Below are positions 18,922-49,763 of a stretch of 64,000 bases of DNA, in pieces. The stretch's first letter is position 1, and each line of letters opens with the position of its first letter. The notes below the pieces were generated by a model that was given only the letters and a program-made list of their open reading frames with translations, did not search any database and was not told the origin of the DNA. Position numbers and translations under genes: made by a program. Source of the stretch: a virus (Duplodnaviria; Heunggongvirae; Uroviricota; Caudoviricetes); the IMG/VR virus record IMGVR_UViG_3300043119_000732; one strand, 5' to 3'.

Positions 18922-19015
18922 AGGAGTAAGGTAGCTGCTGGGTCGTGCTGCACTTGACTGTAAATCAAGTCCCTCTGGGTAAACATCGCAGGTTCAATTC
19001 CTGCTACTCCTACCA
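18922..19015 (+). tRNA. tRNA-Tyr (GTA), type II
   Basis: Acceptor aggagta/tactcct. Anticodon arm cttga-ctGTAaa-tcaag. Long variable arm. T-arm gcagg-ttcaatt-cctgc. CCA is encoded. Confidence 0.75.
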
Positions 19016-19021
19016 TTTTTC

Positions 19022-19107
19022 GCCGCTGTGACAATAATACAAATTGGTACAGTTACTACGTTGAGAACGTAGAGTTTTTGCAGATTCGAATTCTGCCAGC
19101 GGCACCA
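19022..19107 (+). tRNA. atypical tRNA, apparent anticodon GAG (Leu-like), expanded D region
   Basis: Perfect 7-bp acceptor gccgctg/cagcggc. Anticodon arm ctacg-ttGAGaa-cgtag. T-arm gcaga-ttcgaat-tctgc and CCA. The D region is 24-25 nt and no long variable arm is found. Confidence 0.45.
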
Positions 19108-19197
19108 TTTTTTTGGGAGCGACTACACCGCTTTTAGCTGAATATGCGACGAATATTGTCGATAAAACTCTCAAAAATTCATTTCTTGCCTTTTTGT

Positions 19198-19274
19198 TCC
19201 CTCATAACTTTAATTGGTAGAGTACCCGCCTTGTAAGCGGGAAGTTGTCAGTTCGAACCTGACTGGGGGATCCA
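19198..19274 (+). tRNA. tRNA-Thr (TGT)
   Basis: Acceptor tccctca/tggggga. Anticodon arm cccgc-ctTGTaa-gcggg. T-loop ttcgaac. CCA encoded. Confidence 0.75.
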
Positions 19275-19320
19275 CTTATTACTATCTCTTGAAAGCTCCA
19301 TTTTATGAATAAATAATTAA

Positions 19321-20124
19321 ATGTATAAATTCAACCAAGAAGAATTCGATAACGCGACAAATAAAGATTCAGTTACTTGCTGGTGTAAAGATTGTGGAAC
19401 AGAAACCAAAAGACTTAAAATTTATATTAAGCATAATATAAAACATAACGTAGATAAATTTGATTGTCCTTCTTGTAAAGAAAAAGAAAAGCAAAAAATA
19501 ATAGAAGAAAATACAAAAGTATGCCTGACATGTAACATTTCCTTTTTTAGTTACGAAAATAAATTTTGCTCTAATAGTTGTGCTGCTACAACAATCAACA
19601 AGACAAGAGTTTGTAACAAAGTTCATAAAAATACAGAAAATTTTATTAGCAATAATCGCTTCCTTAAAAGAGGTCCTGCATTAAGATATAAAGAATACAA
19701 AAAGTGTTTAAATTGTGAACGAGACTTCTTACCGGTAGCAAAAACGTCAATATTTTGTGAACAAATATGCTCTTCTGAACACAGAAAAAACCAGCGTGAA
19801 AAAGAATTAGAACCACTATTAATCGAAGGAAAGGTTATTTCTCAAAATATTGAAACAAATAACACAATATATAGAAGATACTTAATTCGCAAATTTGGAC
19901 CAAGGTGTATGAAATGTGGTTGGTCCGAAGTAAATCCTTTTTCAGGTAAAGTACCGATCGAGTTAGAACATAAAGATGGTAATTGCATTAATAACATTCC
20001 AGATAATTTAGAGTTGTTGTGTCCAAACTGCCATTCACTATCTCAATTTTATAAAGGTGCTAATAAACGAGAAGGTGGATCTCCAAGATATAAACAATGG
20101 AAAAAATACTTCTCTATCAAATAA
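19321..20124 (+). CDS. HNH homing endonuclease with N-terminal Cys-rich zinc-finger region, inserted in the tRNA cluster
   Basis: Multiple CxxC pairs are present. The C-terminal EHKDGNCINN...LCPNCH is an HNH motif. Confidence 0.6.
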   Translation: MYKFNQEEFDNATNKDSVTCWCKDCGTETKRLKIYIKHNIKHNVDKFDCPSCKEKEKQKIIEENTKVCLTCNISFFSYENKFCSNSCAATTINKTRVCNKVHKNTENFISNNRFLKRGPALRYKEYKKCLNCERDFLPVAKTSIFCEQICSSEHRKNQREKELEPLLIEGKVISQNIETNNTIYRRYLIRKFGPRCMKCGWSEVNPFSGKVPIELEHKDGNCINNIPDNLELLCPNCHSLSQFYKGANKREGGSPRYKQWKKYFSIK

Positions 20125-20190
20125 TTTTTAAGTCCAGACAGCAACCATTAAAATACTACAATAAGGTAAATAAATGGACTTAGTTTTTAC

Positions 20191-20266
20191 GATGGTATAG
20201 TGTAAAGGTTTGCACAGAACACTGTCACTGTTCAAGTCGGGGTTCAATTTCCCCGTACCATCGCCA
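20191..20266 (+). tRNA. tRNA-Asp (GTC)
   Basis: Acceptor gatggta/taccatc. Anticodon arm gaaca-ctGTCac-tgttc. T-arm cgggg-ttcaatt-tcccc. CCA encoded. Confidence 0.8.
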
Positions 20267-20273
20267 TTTTTAT

Positions 20274-20347
20274 CCTTCACAGGTGTTATAGTAGCATTTC
20301 CCGTTTGGGGCGGAAAGGACTCGGAGCGTAACCGAGGTGGAGGACCA
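20274..20347 (+). tRNA. tRNA-like gene with non-canonical T-loop (AGCGTAA); anticodon unresolved, possibly TTG
   Basis: 7-bp acceptor ccttcac/gtggagg with one G-U pair. T-arm ctcgg-agcgtaa-ccgag. The 3' end is CCA. Confidence 0.35.
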
Positions 20348-20354
20348 TTTTATT

Positions 20355-20440
20355 ACGGTGTTGGTTAAGCTGGAATTTGGCAGACAGTATGCATTTAGAC
20401 TGCATGAGCCTTGAAGGTTCAACTCCTTCACACCGTACCA
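20355..20440 (+). tRNA. atypical tRNA, apparent anticodon TAG (Leu-like), expanded D region
   Basis: Perfect acceptor acggtgt/acaccgt. Anticodon arm atgca-ttTAGac-tgcat. T-arm gaagg-ttcaact-ccttc and CCA. The D region is about 25 nt and contains ggaatttggcagac, similar to Leu D-arms. Confidence 0.45.
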
Positions 20441-20447
20441 ATTTTAT

Positions 20448-20521
20448 TGAGATGTCGTATAAAAGTATTACCTCGGACTTTGACCCCGAAGAAGTTGGAG
20501 CGTTACCAGCCATCTCAGCCA
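20448..20521 (+). tRNA. tRNA-like gene, apparent anticodon TTG (Gln?), non-canonical T-loop (AGCGTTA)
   Basis: Acceptor tgagatg/catctca. Anticodon loop ctTTGac. T-arm gttgg-agcgtta-ccagc. CCA encoded. Confidence 0.4.
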
Positions 20522-20527
20522 TTTTAT

Positions 20528-20621
20528 AGTCAGGTAATGTAATTGGAAGCATCGACGGCCTTATAAACCGTGAGCACTAGATTGGTGCCGAGCGAGGGTT
20601 CAATTCCCTCCCTGACTACCA
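20528..20621 (+). tRNA. type II tRNA (long variable arm), isotype unresolved (loop ccttataaa)
   Basis: Acceptor agtcagg/cctgact. D-arm atg-taattggaag-cat. Two internal hairpins. Canonical T-arm gaggg-ttcaatt-ccctc. CCA encoded. Confidence 0.5.
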
Positions 20622-20622
20622 T

Positions 20623-20698
20623 GGTAGAGAGGCCGAACGGTTTAGGCAAGAGTTTCATAAGCTCTTATTTGTGAGTTCAAGTCTCACCTCTACCACCA
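20623..20698 (+). tRNA. tRNA-Met (CAT)
   Basis: Acceptor ggtagag/ctctacc. Anticodon arm aagagt-ttCATaa-gctctt. T-arm gtgag-ttcaagt-ctcac. CCA encoded. Confidence 0.7.
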
Positions 20699-20766
20699 TA
20701 TTTAATAATGTAACGGTAAGAACGCTTACAAGTCAATATTTCAGATTAGTTACATCGCCAATTTAT

Positions 20767-20838
20767 TGCAGTGAGGCAGGTTGCCCAAGGAGTCTCATAA
20801 GCTACCTTCTCTGGTTTCGAGTACCAGCGCTGCACCCA
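20767..20838 (+). tRNA. short atypical tRNA with CAT anticodon loop (Met/Ile2-like)
   Basis: Perfect acceptor tgcagtg/cgctgca. Anticodon loop ctCATaa. T-arm ctggt-ttcgagt-accag. CCA encoded. The D region is shortened. Confidence 0.4.
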
Positions 20839-20975
20839 ATTTAAGTTCATCCAGCAATACTAAATGTCATTGAATACAACAAAAAGCTGAACTTAGTAAT
20901 AAAAGTCCGCACAGCAATCAAAAGCAATTGAATATTAATCAATACAAGCTAAAAACGGACTTTGAAATTTTTTAT

Positions 20976-21052
20976 GCCGATGTCGTCTAATTGGTTAGGA
21001 CACCTCCCTTTCACGGAGAAGCTTGGCGGTTCGATCCCGCTCATCGGTACCA
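20976..21052 (+). tRNA. tRNA-Glu (TTC)
   Basis: Acceptor gccgatg/catcggt. Anticodon arm ctcc-ctTTCac-ggag. T-arm ggcgg-ttcgatc-ccgct. CCA encoded. Confidence 0.65.
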
Positions 21053-21058
21053 TTTTAT

Positions 21059-21134
21059 GTCTCGTTGGTCGAGTGGTTACAGGCTTTTCTCTGCAAAAGA
21101 AATTACATAGGTTCAATTCCTATACGAGACTCCA
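21059..21134 (+). tRNA. tRNA-Cys (GCA)
   Basis: Acceptor gtctcgt/acgagac. Anticodon arm tttct-ctGCAaa-agaaa. T-arm atagg-ttcaatt-cctat. CCA encoded. Confidence 0.7.
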
Positions 21135-21143
21135 TTTTTTTAC

Positions 21144-21222
21144 GCCCTAGTAGCCCAATTGGTAGTATGGCCAGAGTCTTAAACACTCTTCAGTGTGAGT
21201 TCGAATCTCACCTAGGGTACCA
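21144..21222 (+). tRNA. class-I tRNA with TAA anticodon (Leu-decoding anticodon on a short-variable-arm scaffold)
   Basis: Acceptor gccctag/ctagggt. Anticodon arm agagt-ctTAAac-actct. Variable loop only 5 nt. T-arm gtgag-ttcgaat-ctcac. CCA encoded. Confidence 0.5.
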
Positions 21223-21261
21223 CTTTAAGTATATACAGCAAAAATAAAACGCAATCATCAT

Positions 21262-21302
21262 ATACAGATGCTAGTGTGGGTTCAATTCCCACCTCTCCAC
21301 CC
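21262..21302 (+). pseudogene. tRNA 3'-half fragment (T-arm plus acceptor 3' strand plus CCA) with no matching 5' half
   Basis: gtggg-ttcaatt-cccac is followed by ctctcca-c-cca. The complementary tggagag lies 12 nt downstream, not upstream. Confidence 0.4.
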
Positions 21303-21371
21303 AATTTATACTTTATTGGAGAGTAGTGTAACGGTAGCACAGTAAACGCAAAAAATATACTTAGTTTTTTA

Positions 21372-21458
21372 CGCGTCGGTTCCCTTAGCGGCGAAAGGTC
21401 GAGCCTTTTAAGCTCACGGTTTAAACCCATCGAGGGTTCGAGTCCCTCCCGACGCACC
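21372..21458 (+). tRNA. type II tRNA with apparent TTT anticodon loop (cttttaa); identity uncertain
   Basis: Acceptor gcgtcgg/ccgacgc. Anticodon stem gagc/gctc with loop ctTTTaa. Variable arm contains ggtttaaacc. T-arm gaggg-ttcgagt-ccctc. CCA encoded. Confidence 0.45.
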
Positions 21459-21463
21459 ATTTT

Positions 21464-21538
21464 TGCTCCTATAGTCTAATGGATAGGCACCGGTCTTCTA
21501 AGCCGTATTATGTAGGTTCGAGCCCTACTGGGAGCGCC
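21464..21538 (+). tRNA. tRNA-Arg (TCT)
   Basis: Acceptor gctccta/tgggagc. Anticodon loop ctTCTaa. T-arm gtagg-ttcgagc-cctac. CCA encoded. Confidence 0.6.
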
Positions 21539-21696
21539 ATTTTTGTTCATGTACCAAGCGTACAGTGAGCTTTCGGGTCTGTTATGCAGACCCAGTCTCT
21601 TTATCTAAAGATGCGGGTTCAAGGTCCGCTCCTCTCTTACCCAATAGAACAAGGAGGATAGTTCAACATGGTAGAACATTAGATATAAATTTTTAT

Positions 21697-21771
21697 TGCC
21701 TGCTCGTATTCTGGCGAGTACCCCTGACTGTTAATCAGGTGAGCGTGGATCGTAACCACGGCGGGCAGCCA
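21697..21771 (+). tRNA. tRNA-Asn (GTT) with non-canonical T-loop (ATCGTAA)
   Basis: Acceptor tgcctgc/gcgggca. Anticodon arm cctga-ctGTTaa-tcagg. T-arm cgtgg-atcgtaa-ccacg. CCA encoded. Confidence 0.6.
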
Positions 21772-21778
21772 TTTTTAT

Positions 21779-21871
21779 GGAGAGTTGGCCGAGTACGGTT
21801 TATGGCATCTATCTTGAAAATAGAAGGGTCCTCAAAAGCCCCGACGGGTTCAAATCCCTCACTCTCCTCCA
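21779..21871 (+). tRNA. tRNA-Ser (TGA), type II
   Basis: Acceptor ggagagt/actctcc. Anticodon arm tctat-ctTGAaa-ataga. Long variable arm. T-arm acggg-ttcaaat-ccctc. CCA encoded. Confidence 0.75.
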
Positions 21872-21931
21872 CTTTAACATACGTACTATACCTCTTGTTA
21901 TCAATGTGAATAATGGGTACGTGTAATTTAT

Positions 21932-22007
21932 GCATCGTTCGCATAGTGGTTAGTGCGCCTCTCTTCCAAAGAGGATTCCGTGAGTTCGAATCTCACACGA
22001 TGCTCCA
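21932..22007 (+). tRNA. tRNA-Gly (TCC)
   Basis: Acceptor gcatcgt/acgatgc. Anticodon arm cctct-ctTCCaa-agagg. T-arm gtgag-ttcgaat-ctcac. CCA encoded. Confidence 0.8.
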
Positions 22008-22097
22008 TTTTGCGAAAGCAACTAACCTATAATACTCAGCGCTAAGTCAGGTATAAGGAAATTATAGGAAAGCAAAGACCTAATGTTGCTACCTTTA

Positions 22098-22178
22098 TGC
22101 ATCAGTGCCCGGAGTTCGTTTAACGGTCCTCGCTCTTAACGAGATTTACATGGGTTAAAATCCCATCTGATGCACCAA
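22098..22178 (+). tRNA. tRNA-Lys (CTT)-like with non-canonical T-loop (TTAAAAT)
   Basis: Acceptor tgcatca/tgatgca. Anticodon arm ctcg-ctCTTaa-cgag. T-arm atggg-ttaaaat-cccat. CCA encoded. The D-loop is enlarged. Confidence 0.5.
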
Positions 22179-22183
22179 TTTAC

Positions 22184-22261
22184 AGGAGATGGGACTGCAG
22201 GGTTGGTCACCGCTTTTACATAGCGATTAACAGAAGGGTTCGAGCCCCTTATCTCCTACCA
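22184..22261 (+). tRNA. tRNA-Val (TAC)
   Basis: Acceptor aggagat/atctcct. Anticodon loop ttTACat. T-arm aaggg-ttcgagc-ccctt. CCA encoded. Confidence 0.65.
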
Positions 22262-22386
22262 TTTTCTCAGGTTGTACGGTAGAAATCCGGAAAAACTAGA
22301 CCCTTTTCGATTGGGCTCTGGTAGAGGGCATCCAAACGTAATAGTAGGATTGTAAGATTGACGACCCTTACTTGGGACCAATTTAT

Positions 22387-22773
22387 GGGGGTGTACAGGA
22401 TTCGACTTAATTCGATACAGCTCTATTTGCAAGCAGAGATTGATATTATCTCTATAACTAGTATCAAAACTACAAATGGCAACATTGTAAATTACATCAA
22501 GAACTTCTTCAAGAGCGCTGCTCCTGTTGAGGCCCTTGCATTCGCTGCTTAATAAACAGCGATCGAAACTAGATTTGATTCTCACTAAAATTTAATTTCG
22601 TTATATAGTGAGATTAGAGAGTCAGTTATACATTGGGATTCTCTAGTATATAAATGTATACCACTATCTACAGGTTGTAGTATACCTTAAAATAGTTATT
22701 AAATACTACTAAGCTTGTAGATAATAGTGAGGTTTGGGTTAAACACGCGGGTTCAATTCCCGCCACCTCCACC
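22387..22773 (+). ncRNA. ssrA: tmRNA (SsrA), about 387 nt, phage-encoded
   Basis: The 5' end ggggg-tgtacaggattcgac matches the tmRNA signature GGGG…GGATTCGAC. The 3' end is a tRNA-like T-arm gcggg-ttcaatt-cccgc with acceptor cacctcc-a-CCA pairing the 5' gggggtg. Internal reading frame …KNFFKSAAPVEALAFAA then TAATAA, ending in the Ala-rich, degradation-tag-like C-terminus. Confidence 0.8.
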
Positions 22774-22778
22774 ATTTT

Positions 22779-23069
22779 ATGAATAGAAACGAAACGCTTG
22801 AACGTATTAAAGTCAAAATGAAGGAAAAAAATCCATCTATAAAAGATGTTGAATTCGTTGCAAAACGAGATCCTATAAATTTTGGAGCAATAACATATTC
22901 CGTTTTTATAAATGGAGAAAAAAGTCAGGATAGATTACTTGGTGAATTAATAGATGATTTAGAGTTTGTTGGATGTCATTATGCTCCAATAAACGAAAAA
23001 AGAATAGATGTAGTAGAAGAACTTGCTACATTATTATGTAATGTATATGATAGTTCGGAATTTAAATAA
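22779..23069 (+). CDS. hypothetical protein
   Basis: 96 aa ORF immediately after the tmRNA. Confidence 0.4.
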   Translation: MNRNETLERIKVKMKEKNPSIKDVEFVAKRDPINFGAITYSVFINGEKSQDRLLGELIDDLEFVGCHYAPINEKRIDVVEELATLLCNVYDSSEFK

Positions 23070-23261
23070 TTTTTGTTAACAAAGAAAACACATCGATTTC
23101 CAATAGTCGTGATGATCAAAGAGTGCAGTAAAAGTCTGAATATTGGAATAATTTAGGGAAAGCCGCCGTTGATCCAACGAAGAGAAGGCTTGACAGTTCG
23201 GAGAGATTGAACGACATTGCAGTGGATGAGTTGACACTGTAGATTATTAAATAACTCATAT

Positions 23262-23337
23262 TGGAGTTTGGTGAAGCAGGTGCTCACGTCTGCATGAAGA
23301 GCAGAAGATCTCGGATCGATACCGAGAGCTCCAGCCA
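23262..23337 (+). tRNA. tRNA-Phe (GAA) with non-canonical T-loop (ATCGATA)
   Basis: Acceptor tggagtt/agctcca. Anticodon arm tctgc-atGAAga-gcaga. T-arm ctcgg-atcgata-ccgag. CCA encoded. Confidence 0.6.
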
Positions 23338-23338
23338 C

Positions 23339-23412
23339 TGGCCTATAACACAATGATAGTGTGCTTGCCTGATTAGCGAGAAATGGGGGTTTAATTCCCT
23401 CTAGGCCAACCA
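23339..23412 (+). tRNA. tRNA-Ile (GAT)
   Basis: Acceptor tggccta/taggcca. Anticodon arm cttgc-ctGATta-gcgag. T-arm ggggg-tttaatt-ccctc. CCA encoded. Confidence 0.55.
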
Positions 23413-23415
23413 TTT

Positions 23416-23489
23416 ATCCAGCCATGTTCCAAGGTAGGCGATAGAGTCTCCAAAACTCAATGCGGTAAGTTCGATTCTTACGCTGGATG
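23416..23489 (+). tRNA. tRNA-Trp (CCA)
   Basis: Perfect acceptor atccagc/gctggat. Anticodon loop ctCCAaa. Canonical T-arm gtaag-ttcgatt-cttac. The 3' CCA is not encoded. Confidence 0.65.
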
Positions 23490-23515
23490 TTTTTATTTCT
23501 TAACTAAATATAATA

Positions 23516-23845
23516 GTGGGTAAACACATGATACAAAGTATGTTATCACGCGAAGGTAGCGTACTTAAAAAGTATGAAGATTATATAACACCTGATAGTA
23601 ATCTTTATATTAACCCTGATAATCCGGATTCTAATATAATCAGAAGTTTAGCTAAACGTAAAAATAAAGAAGAGACAGTTAAAAAGCATTATGCAGTTGC
23701 TGCAAAAGCAGGTAATTTATATACAAAAAATATACTTAAATTAGCTGAAGAGCAAGGAGTGAAACTAAAGGTAATACATCTTAATATATACCCTGGCGGT
23801 GCAACATCTTTCATGTATAGAATAGCTTTGCAAAAGATAGATTAA
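23516..23845 (+). CDS. hypothetical protein
   Basis: 109 aa ORF. Confidence 0.4.
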   Translation: MGKHMIQSMLSREGSVLKKYEDYITPDSNLYINPDNPDSNIIRSLAKRKNKEETVKKHYAVAAKAGNLYTKNILKLAEEQGVKLKVIHLNIYPGGATSFMYRIALQKID

Positions 23846-23856
23846 TAAATAATTAA

Positions 23857-24189
23857 ATGAATTTTGATCTTCTAATAGAAAAGACTCTATCCAACCTTGA
23901 TGCAAAGAATCAAGAATTTTTCAATGTTAGATCTAAAGGTGCAAAAAAGATAGAAGCATCTGCAAGAGCAAAAGGTGGTCCATCACTGCTTACAGCTCAA
24001 CACTTTAAAGCAAAAGAAATACCATACAAAGAATGTATTAAAAATATAGAGAATCCAAAATTTATTGAATCTAAAGCAGATCAATGCTTTTCTAAACTGA
24101 GAAGTTGGAAGAGTATGACACAGGCTGAATTTCAAAAAGTAACAGGTGAACTTGAAGCATACGGTGAGTGCCTTATTAAGCTAAAATAA
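23857..24189 (+). CDS. hypothetical protein
   Basis: 110 aa ORF. Confidence 0.4.
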   Translation: MNFDLLIEKTLSNLDAKNQEFFNVRSKGAKKIEASARAKGGPSLLTAQHFKAKEIPYKECIKNIENPKFIESKADQCFSKLRSWKSMTQAEFQKVTGELEAYGECLIKLK

Positions 24190-24192
24190 TTT

Positions 24193-24287
24193 GGAGGGTA
24201 GGTAGATATTGTTCTTGCTACATTTGTTTGCTAAACAAAACCGGACCTTAAAAGCCGGTGAGGGTTAAATTCCCTCACCCTCCGCCA
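24193..24287 (+). tRNA. tRNA-Ser (GCT), type II
   Basis: Acceptor ggagggt/accctcc. D-stem gtag/ctac. Anticodon arm tttgt-ttGCTaa-acaaa. Long variable arm accgg…ccggt. T-arm gaggg-ttaaatt-ccctc. CCA encoded. Confidence 0.65.
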
Positions 24288-24295
24288 TTTTTGTA

Positions 24296-24721
24296 TTGAT
24301 ACTGTATCTAATAAATAATAGTATGGAAGACAAGATTATAAGTGAAAAGTATCTAACTGAAATAGCGTTTACAAAAAGATACGATACAACAGATGATTAT
24401 TATATAATGTTCTGGATGGCTGATGATTACGACAACACTATACAACGTCTTTTTAGTAAAAGTTTAGAAGATACAGTAAGTATTGTCGGTTTGAATAGAC
24501 ACGATAAAAAGCAAGCAATCATTAAAAAACTAGAAGAAAAACCTCTAAACATATTTTACGCTATAGATACTTTTGAAGATAGTAGAGAGATAACGATGAT
24601 ATTAGTAGGTACAAACCCTAAGACTACAGATAAGATGAGTATAGAAATTAACGATAAATATGAAAACGATGCACCCAGTTTCTTTAAATTTCTAAGAGCA
24701 GAAGGTCTAAGAATAAAATGA
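24296..24721 (+). CDS. hypothetical protein
   Basis: 141 aa ORF. Confidence 0.4.
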   Translation: MILYLINNSMEDKIISEKYLTEIAFTKRYDTTDDYYIMFWMADDYDNTIQRLFSKSLEDTVSIVGLNRHDKKQAIIKKLEEKPLNIFYAIDTFEDSREITMILVGTNPKTTDKMSIEINDKYENDAPSFFKFLRAEGLRIK

Positions 24722-24906
24722 TCACGTTTAGTTTATTTTTTGAAGCCAATATACATAAAGCTAGACATCCTGGAAGATTTAAAGCAAAGGTAACTAAACG
24801 CTTTGGTAAAGGTAAGATAACTTGTTCTAAAGCAAGATCTTTTACTTCAAGTAGAGACACACTTACTAAGAAACAAGCAAATAGATTTATTAATTACCAC
24901 TGTTAG
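24718..24906 (+). CDS. hypothetical small basic protein
   Basis: 62 aa ORF, K/R-rich. Confidence 0.3.
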   Translation: MITFSLFFEANIHKARHPGRFKAKVTKRFGKGKITCSKARSFTSSRDTLTKKQANRFINYHC

Positions 24907-24929
24907 AAGGAACAAAAATAAAATTTGGT

Positions 24930-25277
24930 ATGGGAAAAGCTAGATACAGATGTCCTTTACTCGATAAACCAAATCAATGGCATGTTGTTCTTGATATAGA
25001 ACAACAACCTTTCAATTGGGTGTATCCAGATTATAAATGTCGACGTCTCTCTGTTACAAAAAAAGATGATGGTACGTACTTACCTTTGGTCAATGGATCT
25101 AATGATTTCCGTAACGTGCCATATGGTGAGACGTTTACAACAAGTAGCTTAGAAGAAGCTCAAAAGTTTTTATTTACATATATAGATAATATAATCGAGA
25201 GAGATAAAAGGCAAGACAAATCTCAATTAAAAGAGTATCTTAAAACGTATGTTGATAGAAAGCTTAAAGAGCAATAA
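24930..25277 (+). CDS. hypothetical protein
   Basis: 115 aa ORF. Confidence 0.4.
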   Translation: MGKARYRCPLLDKPNQWHVVLDIEQQPFNWVYPDYKCRRLSVTKKDDGTYLPLVNGSNDFRNVPYGETFTTSSLEEAQKFLFTYIDNIIERDKRQDKSQLKEYLKTYVDRKLKEQ

Positions 25278-25315
25278 TTTTTAGTAGTCTCTCTGTGCCT
25301 CTCATGCATAATATA

Positions 25316-25343
25316 ATGTAAGTAATTGCGCAATTACTTACAT
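25316..25343. promoter_or_regulatory. perfect 28-nt palindrome (14-bp stem hairpin)
   Basis: atgtaagtaattgc|gcaattacttacat sits between the last protein gene and the next tRNA block. Confidence 0.5.
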
Positions 25344-25378
25344 TATAGCATTGAAGCATAATTCAGGGAGAGTTTATT

Positions 25379-25454
25379 GGGGAGTTAGCTCATTCAGTAG
25401 AGCAATTGCTTTGCAAGCAATAGGTGACCGGAGCAAAGCCGGTATTCTCCACCA
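25379..25454 (+). tRNA. tRNA-Ala (TGC) with non-canonical T-loop (AGCAAAG)
   Basis: Acceptor ggggagt/attctcc. D-arm gctc-attcagtag-agc. Anticodon arm attgc-ttTGCaa-gcaat. T-arm accgg-agcaaag-ccggt. CCA encoded. Confidence 0.6.
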
Positions 25455-25460
25455 CTTTAT

Positions 25461-25536
25461 GTCTCGTTAGTTCAATGGATCAGAACCTTCGGCTACGGAC
25501 CGAACGATGGAAGTTCGACTCTTCCACGGGACACCA
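25461..25536 (+). tRNA. tRNA-Arg (ACG)
   Basis: Acceptor gtctcgt/acgggac. Anticodon arm ttcgg-ctACGga-ccgaa. T-arm ggaag-ttcgact-cttcc. CCA encoded. Confidence 0.75.
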
Positions 25537-25568
25537 CTTTCTCGAAGACTAATTATCTTCGAGTATGT

Positions 25569-25644
25569 TCGATCGTGACGCCGTTTAGTAAGGCAGAGAA
25601 GCTGGCAAAGTGTCTGCCCGCGGGTGCGAATCCCGTCGGTCGAA
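25569..25644 (+). tRNA. tRNA-like gene, isotype unresolved (oversized anticodon-region loop)
   Basis: Acceptor tcgatcg/cggtcga. T-arm gcggg-tgcgaat-cccgt. The central stem gcaga/tctgc encloses a 15-nt loop. No encoded CCA. Confidence 0.3.
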
Positions 25645-25764
25645 CTACAAATTTGAGAATAGAACAATGGTAGGTGAAACCAAGATGTATATCTTTAGAT
25701 TTAAGTCTGTTCTTTCTTTTCAGAAAGTCTAATCACCGATACTACTGAAAAGTTCTCAATTTAT

Positions 25765-25843
25765 GGGGACATCGTCTAAAAACGTAAAGGACATACCTCT
25801 CTCACAGGTAAAATGCCGGCTCGCATTCCGGTTGCCCCCACCA
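25765..25843 (+). tRNA. tRNA-like, apparent anticodon CTC (Glu-like), non-canonical T-loop
   Basis: Acceptor ggggaca/tgccccc with one mismatch. Anticodon arm tacct-ctCTCac-aggta. T-arm ccgg-ctcgcat-tccgg. CCA encoded. Confidence 0.4.
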
Positions 25844-25918
25844 CTTTCTTTCGGCCATCTGGCACCAAGGCATGCTGCCGTTGAGTTCGGCGGATGGAAT
25901 TGCAATCCGAAAGAATAT

Positions 25919-25994
25919 GCACCAGTGACCGGAAAGGCTACGGCTCAGATTGCAACCCTGATTCATGTCGGTTCAAATCCGACCTGGTGCTCCA
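25919..25994 (+). tRNA. tRNA with GCA anticodon (second Cys-like copy)
   Basis: Acceptor gcaccag/ctggtgc. Anticodon arm tcag-ttGCAac-ctga. T-arm gtcgg-ttcaaat-ccgac. CCA encoded. Confidence 0.55.
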
Positions 25995-26297
25995 CTTTCG
26001 GACCAGAATTGAAGCTGGTGGTGTAAACCTTGGAACAACTGAATGACTTCAATTTCAGCCGTATAGGGGAAGAAACTTACCGAAAGCTTTTATCAGGAGA
26101 TGATGTAGTGATTAGCATACTAGGCTGTGAACCTGGGTGGCAGAGTTTGATTCTCTGGCTCCTGACCAATTTGACGGTAATGGCTGAGTTCGACTCAACA
26201 AGGCAAGTCCAGCAGTTCGCCTTCTGTAACCGTAACCTCCAAGCCTTATGGCTTCGGATATGGCCTTCGTTCCGTTCGCCCGATAAGTAACGGATAT

Positions 26298-26374
26298 GCT
26301 CAGGTAGCCCAACGGTAGAGGCGTCGGTCTTAGAAGCCGAATAGTGATGGGTTCAAATCCCTCCCTGAGCACCA
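26298..26374 (+). tRNA. class-I tRNA with TAG anticodon (Leu-decoding anticodon, short variable arm)
   Basis: Acceptor gctcagg/cctgagc. Anticodon arm tcggt-ctTAGaa-gccga. 5-nt variable loop. T-arm atggg-ttcaaat-ccctc. CCA encoded. Confidence 0.55.
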
Positions 26375-26387: not shown

Positions 26388-27815
26388 TTATCTACTTACC
26401 TCTTCCCAATCAACAGAACCGTAAACAACCTCAACATCAGTACTTGCTGTTACAGCAAGTGTTAGTTCATAAGATTCACCGGTAAAACTATTTCTCTCAA
26501 GTTGGAACTTAAATAAAGCTTCTTTCAATATATCTATTGTTGTAGAACCTTGAGCGTTAGAACTAAAGTAACCAGATGCTAGTACCCTACCACCTGTTAT
26601 ACTAGTGGCGTCAAGTTTATACTGTACAGAAGAGCTACCACCTGCATCTATCCATGTACCGGTACCACCTGCTGAAACACCACTAGCAATAACCTTCCAA
26701 CTATAAATACCTGTACCATCACCCATTAACGATATTGCTGTTAGAATGACAATAGCATCTAATCTACTTGGTCTCAATCTTATGGTTATTACAGGATAGT
26801 ATGTGCCTGCTGTAACAAGACTCTTTGGTGCGGTTATTAATGTACCAACAGATTGTTGTAAACCTCTTAATTCGTAACCACCTTCAGATATTACTGTGCT
26901 ACATACTTGCTTCAATTTACTAGGACTTGCTGTAGCAGCTTTATTTTCTATCTCATATCTAAGAGGTAGTGAAGCTGTAGTTATATAAGTGACATCAATT
27001 ACGTTAGCATGATGAAAATAGTGACAAGGTATAAACTGACCATTTATAATAAAGCCTGTTCTAACTGTACCTAAACCAAGCCACTCTATATCTACAAACA
27101 AAATTTGTGATTTAGTAATATCTAAAATAATACCTGATGGACCTGTACCATCAAGTCGATCTACATTCCATTGTGATTGTGATATACGATTAGATACAAC
27201 TGAACCGCTTGTAATGCTACGTTCAACCATATAAAGCGTACTATCATCTAATTCTAGATATATACCGTTATCATTACCAAAATAACCAGTGCGCTGTCTT
27301 AAATTAGATTTAGCTTGATTGAAACTAAATGAATTCATTATTTGAAGACTCTTACCCGGTTGATAAGAAAATACTTTTGTTGTCTCTCTATATATTTTTG
27401 AACCACTTAATGCATCGACTCTTAACTCTATTAATCCTTGAGCTTGAATAAATTGAGCAGAAGCAGATGTCGATGTAGTACCACCTGTAAGATTAGACCA
27501 AAGACTGTTATCACCATATCTAAATGATGAATCAAAAAGAGTTAATGGACTAGATGTTCTTGTACGACCAAACGCATCACTTGCCATATTCAAGTTACCG
27601 GTATAATTTGCAGTAGTGTTATCAACATTTTTAACCAGAACAGCGTATTTAGAATATACATCCATTGAACTAACTGGTTGTACCCCTACTGTATCAGGCG
27701 AACTAAATCGTACTACAGAAACAGGAGGGAATTGAGTATTGTTAGTTATTTGTATAAACTTATTATATTCTAAAGTCTGATAATTTACCACTACATTTGA
27801 ATCAAATGATCCCAT
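26388..27815 (-). CDS. hypothetical virion/structural-like protein
   Basis: 475 aa ORF, S/T/G-rich, convergent with the tRNA cluster. No diagnostic motif. Confidence 0.45.
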   Translation of the reverse strand: MGSFDSNVVVNYQTLEYNKFIQITNNTQFPPVSVVRFSSPDTVGVQPVSSMDVYSKYAVLVKNVDNTTANYTGNLNMASDAFGRTRTSSPLTLFDSSFRYGDNSLWSNLTGGTTSTSASAQFIQAQGLIELRVDALSGSKIYRETTKVFSYQPGKSLQIMNSFSFNQAKSNLRQRTGYFGNDNGIYLELDDSTLYMVERSITSGSVVSNRISQSQWNVDRLDGTGPSGIILDITKSQILFVDIEWLGLGTVRTGFIINGQFIPCHYFHHANVIDVTYITTASLPLRYEIENKAATASPSKLKQVCSTVISEGGYELRGLQQSVGTLITAPKSLVTAGTYYPVITIRLRPSRLDAIVILTAISLMGDGTGIYSWKVIASGVSAGGTGTWIDAGGSSSVQYKLDATSITGGRVLASGYFSSNAQGSTTIDILKEALFKFQLERNSFTGESYELTLAVTASTDVEVVYGSVDWEEVSR

Positions 27816-35343: not shown

Positions 35344-36918
35344 ATGCTACAATTCAATAAAGTAAATGCTACCCCTGCTAAACTCGATCAATGGGTTCAA
35401 CTTGGTGTAAATGTTCTTCTTATTGGCGAGAAGGGTGTTGGCAAGACACAGCGCGTTATAGATGCATTTAAACGCAATAATCTTAAGTTTGCTTATTTTT
35501 CTGGTTCTACTCTTGATCCTTGGATTCATTTGATTGGTATCCCAAAAGTAAGAGGTGCAGAAGGTCAAGAGAAGATGGATTTTATTCTACCTTCTAACCT
35601 TGATGAAGATATTGAAGCATTATTTATTGACGAATATAATAGAACTCATAAACTTGTAAAGAACGCTCTTCTTGAGCTTCAACAGTTTAAGTCAATTAAC
35701 GGTCGTAAGTTTCCTAAGCTTAAGATGGTTTGGGCTGCTATTAATCCACCTAAGTCTGATAGCGATGCTAACTCACAAGACTATGATGTAGAGCAACTTG
35801 ATCCTGCACAACTCGACCGTTTTCATGTTATTGTTGAGCTTCCAAATGCTCCTGATAAGAAATACTTTGTAGATAAGTATGGTGATCATCATGGTAATAT
35901 TCTTATTAACTGGTGGAAAGATCAATCAGATGATGCTAAGAAGATTCTAAGTCCTCGTAGATTAGATTATATTGGAGAGTTTTTCAATAAAGGAGGAGAT
36001 GTATATGATCTTCTACCGGTATCAGCTAATACAAAAGATCTTGTAACTAAACTTGCTACCAAGAAAGAAGACGCATTGTTACATAGTGTATTTGCTAATC
36101 CTACAGAAGATGTAATGAAGCTATTCTTACTCGGTGATCAGAACTATCTCAAGTATAAGGATAAGTTGAATGAGCCTCGTTTCTGGAAATTCCATAAATA
36201 CCTCAAGCAAGAGTATATCTGTGCTAATATAAAGAATAGTGGTATTTATAAGAACTATGCTATATTACAGGGGTTAAAGAAGGATGTAACCTTTACTGCT
36301 GCAATTACAGCGGTATCAAATTCAACTATGAATAATGATTTATTAAAGGTTCTTAAGCTACTAGAAGCGCAAAATCTCGATATTAGTAAGTTTGAGATTA
36401 CAACTCAATCTACCAACAACCTACTTACATCTTTACCACCTTCAGTCACAACAAACGATTTATTCTCAGTTAATCCTGCTATATTAGTAGCAGGCAAAAC
36501 TAAGAAGATAGATTTTACTGTATATAGAAGTCTAGGTACTAACGTTTATATAAGTCTAATGGAGGACTTAGTTAAGTCTTGGAGTAATGTACCCAATCAT
36601 TATGATGTAATTAACTTTACATGTACTATGGTTGGATCGTTTCAAACCACCACATTTACTAAATATAAATCTAAACTACTACCTCTAATTGGTACATGCT
36701 GTATGTTAGCTAAACAAAAGCTAAATACAGATGAGCAAAAGCAAATAAGATCCCAGATACATATTAATAAGGCTAAGATTGGAGATACACACTATAACGA
36801 ATTTATAAACTATTTACGGGGTGATTCAGATGAAACGAGTGTTATTATATCTGAAGACTTTGAAAAGAAAGTAAACGAGGCTAGTATGCTTGTTGCTCTA
36901 TCTTCTAATATAAAATGA
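35344..36918 (+). CDS. AAA+ ATPase, MoxR/CbbQ/CobS-like (AAA_5 family)
   Basis: Walker A LLIGEKGVGKTQ. Walker B ALFIDE. 524 aa. Followed directly by VWA-domain proteins. Confidence 0.6.
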   Translation: MLQFNKVNATPAKLDQWVQLGVNVLLIGEKGVGKTQRVIDAFKRNNLKFAYFSGSTLDPWIHLIGIPKVRGAEGQEKMDFILPSNLDEDIEALFIDEYNRTHKLVKNALLELQQFKSINGRKFPKLKMVWAAINPPKSDSDANSQDYDVEQLDPAQLDRFHVIVELPNAPDKKYFVDKYGDHHGNILINWWKDQSDDAKKILSPRRLDYIGEFFNKGGDVYDLLPVSANTKDLVTKLATKKEDALLHSVFANPTEDVMKLFLLGDQNYLKYKDKLNEPRFWKFHKYLKQEYICANIKNSGIYKNYAILQGLKKDVTFTAAITAVSNSTMNNDLLKVLKLLEAQNLDISKFEITTQSTNNLLTSLPPSVTTNDLFSVNPAILVAGKTKKIDFTVYRSLGTNVYISLMEDLVKSWSNVPNHYDVINFTCTMVGSFQTTTFTKYKSKLLPLIGTCCMLAKQKLNTDEQKQIRSQIHINKAKIGDTHYNEFINYLRGDSDETSVIISEDFEKKVNEASMLVALSSNIK

Positions 36919-38168
36919 ACTATCAAGAACGGTTAGAAATATCTCAAAAGCTCCAAAGTTATCACTATTTCTTTAGAGCTTTTTGGGATATAGGTAACCC
37001 CATAGTAGGTAAGTTTGATGATTTACCTACTGCTGCGATTACCTTTGATGATCAAGGCAATCATCTTAACTTGATGATAAATGAAGATTTTTGGAATTCT
37101 CTAAACGAAGAAACTAAACTCTTTTTAGTTTGTCATGAGATTTTACACATTCTATTAGAGCATGGTTATAGATTCTCTGAGTATATAGGTACACAAGAAT
37201 TTAGTAATATGAATATAGCTGCCGATGTAGTTATTAACGAGACTTTAGTAAGTTCATTTAGTTTTAAGAGAATTGAACTGAATAATGATCTAAGTGAAAA
37301 AGGTTGCTGGATGGATACGGTATTCAAAAATGATAAAAATTGCTTACCTAATCAATCTACAGAATACTATTTTAATAGACTACCTAAAGATAAAGAGAAC
37401 AAATACTTTGCTATAGACTCTCATAAAGTATTAACTCCCGAACAGCAACAACAGATGAAAGATTTGATAGATGCTTCTGGTATTCTTGATAAACTAGATG
37501 AATCATTTACCAATAAACTACCATCAACTGTTGATACGCAAAAATTAAAGAACTCTGCTGCAGGTAAAGGCACAGGTTCATGGCTTACTGTAAATTCGTT
37601 AAGAAAAAAGAAGTACAAGTGGGAGACTGTTATTAAGAAATGGGAAAGTCAGTTTAATAAAGATACTATCAATACGTTAGAACGATGGGAGAGAGTAACT
37701 CCTAAATACTCTCAATTACTATCTAGTGATATATCACTACCTACTGAGAATTGGATCTTAGATGATTTTAAAGACAATCATAAGATTGATGTATGGTTCT
37801 TTTTAGATACATCTGGTTCTTGTATTGGGTTAAAAGATCGCTTCTTTACTGCTGCACGTAGTTTAAATCCTAATAGGTTTAATGTTCGTTTATTTTGCTT
37901 TGATACCTCTGTTGTAGAGATTGATATCAAACAGAATAAAGTGTACGGCGGTGGAGGTACTTCTTTTAGTATTATAGAATCTAAGATACAAAATACTATT
38001 AAATCTGAAAAGATTAAATACCCTAAAGCTGTATTTTTAATCACTGATGGTTATGGTGATACAGTTAAACCAGAGAAGCCAGAACGTTGGTACTGGTTTT
38101 TATCTGATAATTATAGACATTATATACCAAAAGAGTCTAAAATATTTAAGTTATCTGACTACGAATAA
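36915..38168 (+). CDS. putative metallopeptidase (HExxH) plus VWA (MIDAS) domain protein, MoxR-partner type
   Basis: LVCHEILHILLEH is an HExxH…E motif. The C-terminal FFLDTSGSC is a DxSGS MIDAS motif. Overlaps the upstream ATPase by 4 nt. Confidence 0.6.
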   Translation: MNYQERLEISQKLQSYHYFFRAFWDIGNPIVGKFDDLPTAAITFDDQGNHLNLMINEDFWNSLNEETKLFLVCHEILHILLEHGYRFSEYIGTQEFSNMNIAADVVINETLVSSFSFKRIELNNDLSEKGCWMDTVFKNDKNCLPNQSTEYYFNRLPKDKENKYFAIDSHKVLTPEQQQQMKDLIDASGILDKLDESFTNKLPSTVDTQKLKNSAAGKGTGSWLTVNSLRKKKYKWETVIKKWESQFNKDTINTLERWERVTPKYSQLLSSDISLPTENWILDDFKDNHKIDVWFFLDTSGSCIGLKDRFFTAARSLNPNRFNVRLFCFDTSVVEIDIKQNKVYGGGGTSFSIIESKIQNTIKSEKIKYPKAVFLITDGYGDTVKPEKPERWYWFLSDNYRHYIPKESKIFKLSDYE

Positions 38169-38682: not shown

Positions 38683-40212
38683 ATGGCAACTAAAAAAACA
38701 ATCAAAAAGACAGCTCCTAAGCAAAACGCACTTATCAGTGCTTTAACTACAGGAGATATCAAGACGCATAATGGTGCGGTAAGTCATTCGACTACTGGTA
38801 CTTCTTTGCTCGATTTTTTTGGTAAAGGTGGTTCAATGCGTTCACAACCAGATGATGCATCTATTACACTTTTCCGCTCCGCTTATAATGAGGATAAGAC
38901 TATCGCTCTTAAGATTCTCTTCTATCTAGTAGATGTACGTGAAGGTCAAGGTGAGCGTAAGCTCTTCCGTAACTGCTTTAAGTGGCTTGCGCAAAACGAT
39001 GAGAAAGTAGCTAAGAACCTCTTGATCCAGATCCCTGAGTTTACTCGTTGGGACAACGTACTTGAGACGCTTGAAGGTACATCTCTTGAAAAAATCGCAC
39101 TTAAATTTGTTGCTGATAAACTTATTGAAGATGCATCTGAAAAGAATCCTTCACTATGTGCTAAATGGGCACCAAGTGAACAGGCTTCATCTTCTGTAAC
39201 CAAACGTCTTGCAAAGAAAGTACGTACTACTTTAGATTACTCTCCAAAGCAATATCGTAAGCTTCTATCAGCTCTTCGTAAAAAGATCGATGTAGTGGAA
39301 CGCAAAATGTGTGTAGGTGAATGGGACAAGATCAATTATCCTGCGGTACCTTCAAAGGCTGCAAGCACTTACCGTAAAGCATTCAAAGAACATGACGGTG
39401 ACCGTTACTCAAAGTTTTTAACTAATGTCGAGAAAGGTGAAGAAAAGATTAACGCTTCAGTATTGTACCCATATGATATTGTACGTTCAGTTCGTAATAT
39501 ACGGTCCGTAGATCGTACTCTAGAGGCCCAATGGAAGGCCTTACCAGATTATCTTGCCGGTAATAAGCATAATGGTATTGTTGTAGCTGACGTTTCAGCT
39601 TCAATGGACTCTTGTAACTATTATAATGCTAATATTGGTAATAACATAGCACCTATTGATGTTGCTGTATCAATTGCAATTTATTTTGCTGAACGAAACG
39701 AAGGTGCATTCAAAGATCATTTTATGATCTTCTCCCATAATGCTAAACTTTTAAAGATTACAGGTACAAGTCTAATACAAAATGTAACTGATGTTCTTGG
39801 TAGACGTGAGGTTGCTAATACTAATCTACAATCTGTATTTGATCTTATACTTGATAAAGGCGTAAGTAATAAAGTGCCGCAATCTGAAATGCCATCCCAT
39901 GTATATATTATCTCAGATATGCAATTTGATTGTGCTACCGGGCCAGACTCTCTTAATAGCGGTGAAGTAACTAATCATGCTGCTATTAAGGCAAAGTACG
40001 CTGCAGCTGGTTACAACGTGCCTCAAATTGTATATTGGAATGTTAACTCTTATAGTGATGTACCGGTTAAATATGACGATAAAGGTACTTGCTTAGTATC
40101 AGGCTGTTCACCTTCAATCTTGAAGAGTGTTTTGTCTAACAAATCAACAACACCTTATAACATGATGATCGATACAGTTTGTAGTGACCGTTATGAAGTA
40201 ATCAAAGCTTAA
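38683..40212 (+). CDS. TROVE-domain / VWA protein, Ro60 (Rsr)-like
   Basis: 509 aa. The N-terminal LLDFFGKGGSMRS resembles the Ro60 FG-x-GG-T/S motif. Central VVADVSASMDS is a DxSxS MIDAS motif. The architecture matches Ro60 (about 530 aa torus plus vWA). Confidence 0.5.
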   Translation: MATKKTIKKTAPKQNALISALTTGDIKTHNGAVSHSTTGTSLLDFFGKGGSMRSQPDDASITLFRSAYNEDKTIALKILFYLVDVREGQGERKLFRNCFKWLAQNDEKVAKNLLIQIPEFTRWDNVLETLEGTSLEKIALKFVADKLIEDASEKNPSLCAKWAPSEQASSSVTKRLAKKVRTTLDYSPKQYRKLLSALRKKIDVVERKMCVGEWDKINYPAVPSKAASTYRKAFKEHDGDRYSKFLTNVEKGEEKINASVLYPYDIVRSVRNIRSVDRTLEAQWKALPDYLAGNKHNGIVVADVSASMDSCNYYNANIGNNIAPIDVAVSIAIYFAERNEGAFKDHFMIFSHNAKLLKITGTSLIQNVTDVLGRREVANTNLQSVFDLILDKGVSNKVPQSEMPSHVYIISDMQFDCATGPDSLNSGEVTNHAAIKAKYAAAGYNVPQIVYWNVNSYSDVPVKYDDKGTCLVSGCSPSILKSVLSNKSTTPYNMMIDTVCSDRYEVIKA

Positions 40213-49699: not shown

Positions 49700-49763
49700 T
49701 GAAAATAACTGATAAATTTATATTCTTTGATATAGATGTTAGACGTAAAATTACACAAAATTT

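Follow-up and report, generated by a model that had tools for sequence, protein, structure and literature searches.

The stretch of DNA considered here, the window, comprises 64,000 nucleotides (nt) of the IMG/VR virus record IMGVR_UViG_3300043119_000732 and covers part of a phage genome. It carries an island of tRNA genes and, set among them, a candidate gene (ssrA) for a one-piece transfer-messenger RNA (tmRNA), by which bacteria rescue stalled ribosomes; this gene is the subject of this report. It sits between the genes for tRNA-Val (22184-22261) and tRNA-Phe (23262-23337), and the same window has genes for a baseplate wedge subunit, a tail fiber, a virion structural protein of the family phrog_1645 and NAMPT. 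With baseplate, tail fiber and virion genes on the same contig and the tRNA array on both sides, the genome that carries the tmRNA is genuinely that of a phage. An earlier reading of the bare sequence (the original prediction) had put the number of tRNAs at about 30; the count is 27, of which 24 were called by ARAGORN and three were found with Rfam only.

The Rfam covariance model of the bacterial one-piece tmRNA, RF00023, whose gathering score is 47 bits, matches 22387-22774 on the + strand with 133.9 bits (E 3.6e-52) and from model position 1 to 374 of 374. The original prediction had proposed a phage-encoded tmRNA within a tRNA island and an Infernal search as a check on it; this significant match over the full length of the model, the formation of the canonical helices and the covariation found in 35 viral tmRNAs all bear the proposal out. 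The 5' signature that it cited (GGGGGTGTACAGGATTCGAC at 22387), the 3' end (GCGGGTTCAATTCCCGC-CACCTCC-A-CCA) and the C-terminus of the reading frame (...KSAAPVEALAFAA, then TAA TAA) are present as described. Its span of 22387-22773, about 387 nt, had the right start and needs correction at the other end, where the last A of the CCA is 22774 and the length 388 nt. The open reading frame (ORF) that it saw inside the element does provide the tag frame, but the 64-amino-acid ORF (22358-22552) is no gene and simply reflects the fact that the tag frame happens to be open upstream. The sequence evidence thus supports a phage-encoded one-piece tmRNA in the tRNA island, and we place at roughly three in four the probability that an uncultivated, low-GC, T4-like myovirus of aquatic origin has at 22387-22774 a one-piece tmRNA gene that is functional, its function being predicted from the features described below.

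The tmRNA architecture is present in the window copy, with the pseudoknots PK2-PK4 as putative elements (table 1). In the long helix P2, which joins the tRNA-like to the mRNA-like domain, 20 of the 21 pairs form (P2a 7/7, P2b 6/7 with one U·U, P2c 7/7), and the frame that opens at GGC 22478 runs for 24 codons, ends in ...EALAFAA and closes with UAA UAA within the helix-5 loop of a 6-bp hairpin.

Related viruses also bear on this architecture. Through the phrog_1645 virion protein 80 IMG/VR loci were fetched (here numbered with L) and searched with a local profile, and tmRNA-like sequence was present in ten of them (L002, L003, L012/L014, L017/L018, L027, L033, L039, L079). Rfam reports full-length tmRNAs with 86-143 bits in eight of the nine loci scanned, L018 being outside the scan; the tmRNA of L079, a gene cut off by the contig end, has no Rfam match. 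The tmRNAs of these relatives usually stand beside the same virion gene and tRNAs, and in most of them the tag is long and shows the conserved core …LLAEAEYIFNNADEF…EEE…LAA. A degenerate DNA pattern for EYIFNNA matched at least 120 IMG/VR stretches, and 83 of 119 loci newly fetched with it contain the tmRNA gene of this group, so that the clade extends to at least 83 contigs, some of them longer than 200 kb. Its acidic tags (L002, L003, L017, L027, L033, L039, L079 and L085-L203; for example, L033:11849-12310) have 32-45 residues, mostly about 33, with the consensus AEDNTSDLLAEAEYIFNNADEFLAGVE…ALAA. Judged by DNA similarity search, the clade is absent from the isolates of the phage collection, and none of 120 bacterial and archaeal matches to the pattern, among those listed, places the acidic core in a tmRNA; this core looks virus-specific.

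Pairing within the clade was assessed in an alignment of 35 sequences at 44 base pairs, taken from the acceptor stem, P2b, P2c, both stems of the first pseudoknot (PK1), one helix of the fourth (PK4) and the T-arm; the alignment is unreliable over PK2 and PK3, and the covariation results exclude these two. Paired residues occupy 95.3% of the cells, as against 40-57% when the partners are slid along the sequence. Double compensatory changes occur in 34 of the 44 pairs (7/7 in P2b, 3/6 in P2c, 5/5 in PK1 stem 1 and 6/8 in PK1 stem 2), and the observed values were reached by 0 of 500 shuffles. The covarying PK4 helix is helix 6. Of the 35 members, 34 retain the G·U at pair 3 of the acceptor stem, and this stem covaries at pairs 4-6; in the D-loop analogue, G12, T16, C17, G18 and A19 are invariant in clade alignment A2. 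The tmRNA architecture is thus maintained by compensatory evolution in the related phages. The window gene itself aligns end-to-end (40.1 bits, E 4.4e-12) with a profile hidden Markov model of the clade that was built from neither the window copy nor L012; on this homology it is a divergent member of the viral clade and not an independent capture.

Table 1. Features of the tmRNA gene and its surroundings in the window. The clade is the group of related viral tmRNAs described in the text.
Feature	Position	Strand	Basis
One-piece tmRNA (ssrA), complete, 388 nt	22387..22774	+	RF00023 match; identical copy on JGI contig L083
Acceptor stem, 5' strand GGGGGUG	22387..22393	+	7/7 pairs with 22764-22770; G3·U70 alanine identity pair
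Analogue of the D-loop in the tRNA-like domain, UACAGGAUUCGAC	22394..22406	+	Agrees with conserved GGAUUCGAC of Rfam consensus
Helix P2, 5' strand: P2a 22407-22413, P2b 22421-22427, P2c 22428-22434	22407..22434	+	Pairs with 22713-22742
Pseudoknot PK1: stem 1 22435-22439 x 22449-22453, stem 2 22440-22447 x 22460-22467	22435..22467	+	5/5 and 8/8 pairs; both covary
Single-stranded 10-nt spacer AACUACAAAU, sets resume frame	22468..22477	+	10 nt in 26/35 clade members
Putative resume codon GGC (Gly)	22478..22480	+	Opens sole long frame; L012 analogy; ARAGORN edit
Predicted tag frame, 24 codons, GNIVNYIKNFFKSAAPVEALAFAA, then UAA UAA (22550-22555)	22478..22555	+	Translation; homologous to clade tag core
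Helix 5 hairpin, 22542-22547 x 22557-22562, stops in loop	22542..22562	+	6/6 pairs; agrees with Rfam helix there
Putative pseudoknot PK2: 22564-22569 x 22595-22600, 22580-22586 x 22607-22613	22564..22613	+	5/6 and 7/7 pairs; window complementarity only
Putative pseudoknot PK3: 22615-22623 x 22637-22645, 22627-22633 x 22654-22660	22615..22660	+	9/9 and 7/7 pairs; window complementarity only
PK4 region: 22663-22672 with 22676-22680 and 22692-22696; 22677-22682 x 22704-22709	22663..22709	+	All proposed pairs form; putative topology
Helix P2, 3' strand: P2c 22713-22719, P2b 22723-22729, P2a 22736-22742	22713..22742	+	Pairing and clade covariation
T-arm: stem GCGGG/CCCGC (22747-22751 x 22759-22763), canonical loop UUCAAUU	22747..22763	+	5/5 pairs; 4/5 covary in clade
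Acceptor 3' strand CACCUCC (22764-22770), discriminator A 22771, encoded CCA 22772-22774	22764..22774	+	Sequence and pairing
tRNA island around the tmRNA, 27 genes, all +	18922..26374	+	24 ARAGORN tRNAs and 3 Rfam-only tRNA-like genes
Rfam-only tRNA-like genes	20448-20518, 22099-22174, 25765-25840	+	Rfam, without ARAGORN call
PTH2 peptidyl-tRNA hydrolase, 134 amino acids	46845..47249	+	Pfam PF01981, E 2.4e-30, 105.5 bits; about 24 kb from tmRNA

Selection on the tag was measured in seven acidic-tag copies that had been found by synteny, and were therefore free of any bias from the tag pattern. Among codon pairs with a single nucleotide difference 175 are synonymous and 88 non-synonymous, the chance expectation being 21% synonymous, and changes fall mostly at third positions (365, against 183 and 142 at the other two). 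The synonymous excess and the dominance of the third position imply that the clade tag is translated and is selected as a peptide.

The clade also varies in its details. Several members have the non-canonical T-loops GGCAGAA, UAUCGUA or GGCAGAU instead of GGUUCRA (e.g., L091, L162, L147, L150, L017), and many lack an encoded 3' CCA, their ends reading …CUCCACUU, …CCAGUU or …CCAAAA. In L123 and L125 unrelated sequence that may be an intron breaks the T-arm after GGGGTTCAACTC, and in L012/L014 there is an Rfam match to a group I intron (60.6 bits, L012:13839-14033) at 1.3 kb from the tmRNA. In most members the motif (G)ATCTTTGAAA(A)TTT(AT) stands directly 5' of the mature G of the tmRNA, whatever lies farther upstream, and may serve in processing or as a promoter; the window shows no enrichment of it (2 matches, 1.3 expected), and 22375-22386 holds just AATTTAT.

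From established tmRNA biology one can propose how the window gene would work. The RNA would be transcribed together with the tRNA array and then trimmed in the manner of a tRNA, by RNase P at G1, with its CCA already encoded; a scan for promoters and terminators beside the gene found nothing above background, as would be expected if the gene is co-transcribed with the array and its RNA then processed like a tRNA. The alanyl-tRNA synthetase (AlaRS) of the host would charge it with alanine by way of G3·U70, and host SmpB and EF-Tu would bind it and bring it to ribosomes that have stalled on mRNAs that are broken or lack a stop codon. The nascent chain would pass onto the alanine of the tmRNA, translation would restart at GGC 22478 and append GNIVNYIKNFFKSAAPVEALAFAA, and termination at UAA UAA would free the ribosome. 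The hydrophobic, Ala-rich end (…LAFAA) would most likely direct the product to host proteases. For the phage, the presumed benefit would be that ribosomes are kept available during host mRNA decay or in the face of host defenses that cut mRNA or tRNA, a purpose to which the PTH2 hydrolase and the 27 tRNAs would contribute as well. The original prediction had gone further and suggested that the phage supplies its own ribosome-rescue kit, with a Pth2 hydrolase beside the tmRNA. The hydrolase gene is real, but it lies some 24 kb downstream, no SmpB was found in the window or the related viral loci, and the kit is an interpretation.

A number of observations weigh against a functional tmRNA of this kind, or against particular parts of it. 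The gene is patchy among the relatives: L001 has no tmRNA within its 13.9 kb. This locus (IMGVR_UViG_3300042544_002111) is the nearest relative by virion protein (76% identity) and holds about 30 tRNAs. In this group of phages the tmRNA is thus an accessory gene with a patchy distribution. The window tag ends in AFAA, the canonical ending being ALAA, and selection at the peptide level was seen for the acidic tags of the clade, not for the window's own tag type, for which no second phage was found: patterns for its C-terminal and N-terminal halves gave 74 and 21 matches, none in a tmRNA and all due to chance. In the window PK2-PK4 rest on self-complementarity in AT-rich sequence, where the Rfam posterior probabilities are low. 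No SmpB was present among about 90 window ORFs scanned, nor was one found by tblastn with a Pfam-validated Escherichia coli SmpB query in the window and 2.28 Mb of related viral loci, a search that recovers bacterial smpB at 36% identity; the RNA would accordingly depend on SmpB, AlaRS and EF-Tu of the host unless an SmpB is encoded elsewhere in the genome. ARAGORN, which called 24 tRNAs in the window, called no tmRNA there, a failure that was traced to its resume-site heuristic. Finally, the Rfam alignment sets the consensus resume codon on GCA 22479-22481, a frame that reads Ala-Thr-Leu-stop, and the 11-nt spacer that this frame would imply does exist in 7 of 35 relatives.

Among the alternatives, the one that survives best accepts that trans-translation is real and questions the fate of its product: the tag would be no plain degradation signal and would instead serve some virus-specific end, such as delivery to another protease or adaptor, sequestration or protection from ClpXP. 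The clade tags invite such a view, since they are long and acidic and their peptide conservation reaches well past the C-terminal degron; their core recurs in 83 of 119 viral pattern matches and in 0 of 120 bacterial ones among the matches listed, and some members end in LLT, CLA, LFA or MVA instead of LAA. The window tag, too, with its AFAA end, has 24 codons, the most frequent lengths in the ARAGORN table being 10-12 residues. Nevertheless, the window copy and most members retain an Ala-rich, hydrophobic C-terminus of the degron type, long bacterial tags with internal adaptor-binding sites exist (Mycoplasma, Chlamydia), the window tag is non-acidic and resembles tags of the host type, no binding partner was identified, and a sequence search of the PDB gave no significant match for the acidic tag. 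We regard a special fate of the tagged product as rather unlikely.

A second alternative concerns the point at which translation resumes. Were this GCA 22479-22481, the tag would be Ala-Thr-Leu only, and ribosomes would be rescued with no degron added. Besides the Rfam consensus and the spacer lengths already cited, this alternative can call on a GCA that is invariant at the aligned position in the first five copies and on the three open codons of GCA ACA UUG UAA. But it is the GGC frame whose 24 codons reach AFAA-UAA-UAA exactly in the helix-5 loop, and it is this frame that is homologous to, and in register with, the tag core of the clade, the window FFKSA being aligned with the clade IFNNA in the profile alignment. 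GGC also yields the modal 10-nt spacer, in a context (ACAAAU before the G) that is the same in L194. In L012 the same GGC layout leads to the tag GKAKNVVNAIFGRGSRNESFVGGELALAA, with the end ALAA, whereas the GCA frame of L012 stops after six codons; ARAGORN itself starts the L012 tag from GGC, and Gly at the start of a tag is common among the known tags of the program's built-in table. We infer that the resume codon is GGC 22478 rather than GCA, and consider a restart at GCA improbable.

The behavior of ARAGORN bears on the same codon. The original prediction had named this program as a check, and here the outcome went the other way: it calls no tmRNA, relaxed thresholds included, and in tmRNA-only mode with linear topology it makes no call down to the 80% threshold. 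A call on the wrong strand and a 'permuted' call (at 70%, and at 80% with a circular topology assumed, the 'permuted' one in the latter setting only) were rejected as spurious; a two-piece (permuted) tmRNA was likewise rejected, the gene being in standard order and RF00023 being the best model after clan competition among the tmRNA models. An in-silico edit of GGC to GCA at 22478-22480 alone produces a call at exactly 22387-22774 with the tag ANIVNYIKNFFKSAAPVEALAFAA; in-silico swaps of the tRNA-like ends, the D-region, the T-loop, the tag length or the tag C-terminus leave the program silent. Because the GGC to GCA edit is sufficient to restore the call, the miss reflects the resume-site heuristic and is not evidence against the gene. 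Counting the window, 18 of 38 members were called, and in all 17 acidic-tag members among those called the tag was truncated or misplaced. ARAGORN was used in all three published searches for phage tmRNAs considered here, one of which also used Infernal with Rfam models (PMC4131195; PMC7162821; PMC9004378). Since the program misses many members and the published searches rely on it, the one-piece tmRNAs of aquatic phages have probably been under-counted.

One could also imagine the RNA as a decoy that titrates SmpB or AlaRS of the host and so inhibits host trans-translation, as has been suggested for the tmRNA of mycobacteriophage DS6A, which consists of the tRNA-like domain only (PMC4131195). 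The failure to find a phage SmpB, either in the window or in the related loci, would suit a decoy. A decoy, however, would have no need of the complete mRNA-like domain, PK1, spacer, tag frame and double stop, all of which are retained and, in the clade, are under selection, and we judge this role very improbable.

Still less likely, in our estimation, is a non-functional passenger, whether a captured host ssrA, a remnant of the attP type or a chimera of the assembly. Temperate phages do often hold ssrA fragments that derive from integration at this gene (PMC9004378), and the window tag has a weak likeness to cyanobacterial tags. The gene is complete, though, and no 3' fragment; it sits in the tRNA array of a T4-like genome of lytic type, the window ORFs, scanned with Pfam, matched no integrase family among those reported, and the gene has homologues in a viral clade of at least 83 tmRNAs whose structure is under selection. 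The same virion protein occurs on independent metagenome contigs, some of 0.2-1 Mb, and one of them, L083 (JGI 3300036945), carries an identical tmRNA, which excludes a chimera; the samples that hold the phage are JGI 3300036945 and SRR11805301. Nor was a close bacterial counterpart found: a metagenome scan with the 5' 20-mer of the window gene returned, as the best matches, 18 tmRNAs without flanking tRNAs that are 56-62% identical to it. In IMG/VR this 20-mer has no exact match. As for the proposal that the region codes for a 64-amino-acid protein and resembles a tmRNA by coincidence, the ORF (22358-22552) exists, but the covariance-model E value of 3.6e-52, its overlap with the acceptor stem, P2 and PK1, which all covary as RNA, and the lack of conservation in the upstream part of the frame among relatives leave this next to no credibility.

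Within the metagenome scan one group (L419, L425, L426, L430, L435 and also L423) has the exact 5' 20-mer of the window gene, a GGC resume codon and the context AUGGCAA / ACAUGGCAA. Its tags, for example GNKNRVKAFGLKSQKLALAA, are loosely like that of the window, and L423 has a 448-nt tmRNA with an acidic tag of 40 residues ending in PMTV. The contigs are of low GC content with mostly orphan genes, having no NCBIfam match and mostly no PHROGs match, and the group was not used as evidence.

The likeness of the window tag to cyanobacterial tags can be put in numbers. In the ARAGORN table (about 1,270 tags) all tags with NIV, and all but one of those with NII, are cyanobacterial or plastid, the exception being that of the cryptophyte alga Rhodomonas salina, which is entered without a compartment. 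Among the 40 known tags that score best against the window tag, 26 are cyanobacterial or plastid, as compared to 60 of 1,273 overall, an enrichment reached by 9 of 200 composition-preserving shuffles (p ~0.05); the best alignment score itself, 34, was equaled by 79 of 300 shuffles and is not significant. With the cyanobacterial and plastid pattern (ANNIV·F·R··APVAA) the window tag has in common the NIV block, the AAPV block and a terminal AA; it differs in being eight residues longer and in starting with Gly. We take the resemblance of GNIVNYIKNFFKSAAPVEALAFAA to these tags as a weak lead on the host or the origin of the gene, not as a demonstrated relationship.

Protein comparisons offer some indication of the phage's own affinities. 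The best annotated matches of the phrog_1645 protein (26388-27815, - strand), at about 62% identity, are in S-RIM8, S-RIM50, S-WAM2 and S-SRM01, which are T4-like cyanomyoviruses; the baseplate wedge subunit also has its best matches in cyanomyoviruses, at 23-28% identity. Searches of the annotated phage collection at the DNA level found no similarity for the tmRNA, for the 18-30 kb region or for the one clade member used as a query. The protein matches, together with the low identity of the baseplate, indicate that the phage is a distant, uncultivated relative. The SAR116 podovirus HMO-2011 also has a protein with about 61% identity to the phrog_1645 protein; since the latter is alike in a podovirus and in cyanomyoviruses, it moves between unrelated types of phage and is a poor taxonomic marker.

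Phage tmRNAs have been on record since those of the Bxz1-like mycobacteriophages and Bacillus phage G (PMC4131195), and tmRNA together with SmpB has been reported in huge phages (PMC7162821). The statement in the original prediction that they are rare in phages is a fair one: an ARAGORN census found tmRNA in 2.3% of 18,146 phage genomes, those of aquatic phages being mostly two-piece, and only 2.5% of the one-piece phage tmRNAs came from marine phages (PMC9004378). With the bacterial one-piece tmRNA (RF00023) the window copy shares the tRNA-like domain with G3·U70, a UUCAAUU T-loop and a discriminator A followed by CCA, as well as P2, PK1, the single-stranded spacer, the tag stop in the helix-5 loop and, putatively, PK2-PK4; it departs from it in its location in a phage tRNA array, its GGC in a context that ARAGORN rejects, its 24-codon tag, its AT-rich pseudoknots and the lack of a cognate smpB found nearby. 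The mycobacteriophages of cluster C1 (Bxz1, Catera and relatives) and Bacillus phage G resemble this case in having one-piece tmRNAs in large, tRNA-rich myoviruses, and the Bxz1 tag (25 residues, acidic, ATDTDATVTDAEIEAFFAEEAAALV) recalls the acidic tags of the present clade, a matter of resemblance only; their hosts (Actinobacteria, Bacillus) are unrelated, and searches of the phage collection showed no DNA similarity. Other tmRNA-bearing phages, namely Methylophilales phage Melnitz, Pelagibacter phage Mosig and pelagimyophages known as metagenome-assembled genomes, are likewise aquatic, low-GC, T4-like myophages, and the same role, upkeep of the hijacked translation machinery, has been proposed for their tmRNAs (PMC9004378). 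These, however, are circularly permuted two-piece RNAs, some with a glutamine riboswitch, whereas the window gene is a standard one-piece gene for which Rfam, at its gathering threshold, gave no riboswitch. The acidic-tag viral clade agrees with the window copy in its neighborhood (phrog_1645, tRNAs), in the tRNA-like domain, P2 and PK1, in the context of the spacer and in the in-frame core of the tag. By comparison the window tag is shorter (24 versus 32-45 residues), is not acidic and begins with Gly instead of Ala, and within the clade the GGC arrangement is common to the window and L012 only. The window tmRNA is thus a further example of the already known phage tmRNAs, and the added interest lies in the clade and its long tags.

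Several other features of the window deserve a brief mention. Three tRNAs are long for their types, those for Tyr (94 nt, 18922-19015), Ile-TAT (94 nt, 20528-20621) and Lys (87 nt, 21373-21459), and may contain introns or insertions. A small ORF directly 3' of the tmRNA (22779-23069) was considered as a partner protein and rejected, having no homologue beside other tmRNAs. A very basic ORF of 62 residues (24718-24906, + strand; MITFSLFFEANIHKARHPGRFKAKVTKRFGKGK…), which has no Pfam match, has homologues in nine other loci, all with a tmRNA and often at 0.4-1.5 kb from it; these loci were selected for their tmRNA and are interrelated, so that the association is a lead only. Farther along the + strand, a nucleotide and nicotinamide adenine dinucleotide (NAD) salvage cluster (48833-53421) consists of a phosphoribosyl pyrophosphate synthetase-like gene (48833-49696), a gene whose product contains a nucleoside 2-deoxyribosyltransferase-like domain (49764-50651), one for an AAA/STAND-like ATPase (50659-51711) and NAMPT (51835-53421), and may represent a counter-defense module that reconstitutes NAD. 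The segment 35344-40212 (+ strand) holds a phrog_1297 'ATPase' without a Pfam match (35344-36918), a protein with a DUF2201 metallopeptidase-like domain (36915-38168) and a DUF2828/DUF7788 protein of 509 residues that PHROGs labels 'RNA-binding protein' (38683-40212); no structured RNA associated with these genes was found at the Rfam gathering threshold.

To our knowledge, the role of phage-encoded tmRNAs has never been established by experiment. The locus described here is a clean example, from a T4-like aquatic phage not yet cultivated, of a tmRNA in the company of 27 tRNAs and PTH2, and this combination fits the idea that large phages sustain translation under host shut-off or under defenses that cut RNA. 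A bolder and rather doubtful extension is that the window gene belongs to one branch of a large, virus-only tmRNA lineage whose tags have been reshaped by phages for a purpose of their own, the window branch having evolved or retained a host-like tag of cyanobacterial type. If this were true, phage tmRNAs would go beyond adding to ribosome rescue and would re-direct the fate of the proteins released from stalled ribosomes, for instance by directing truncated host proteins to one particular protease or adaptor, or by sparing them. The conserved tag of the clade offers a testable handle on the question of why phages encode a tmRNA.

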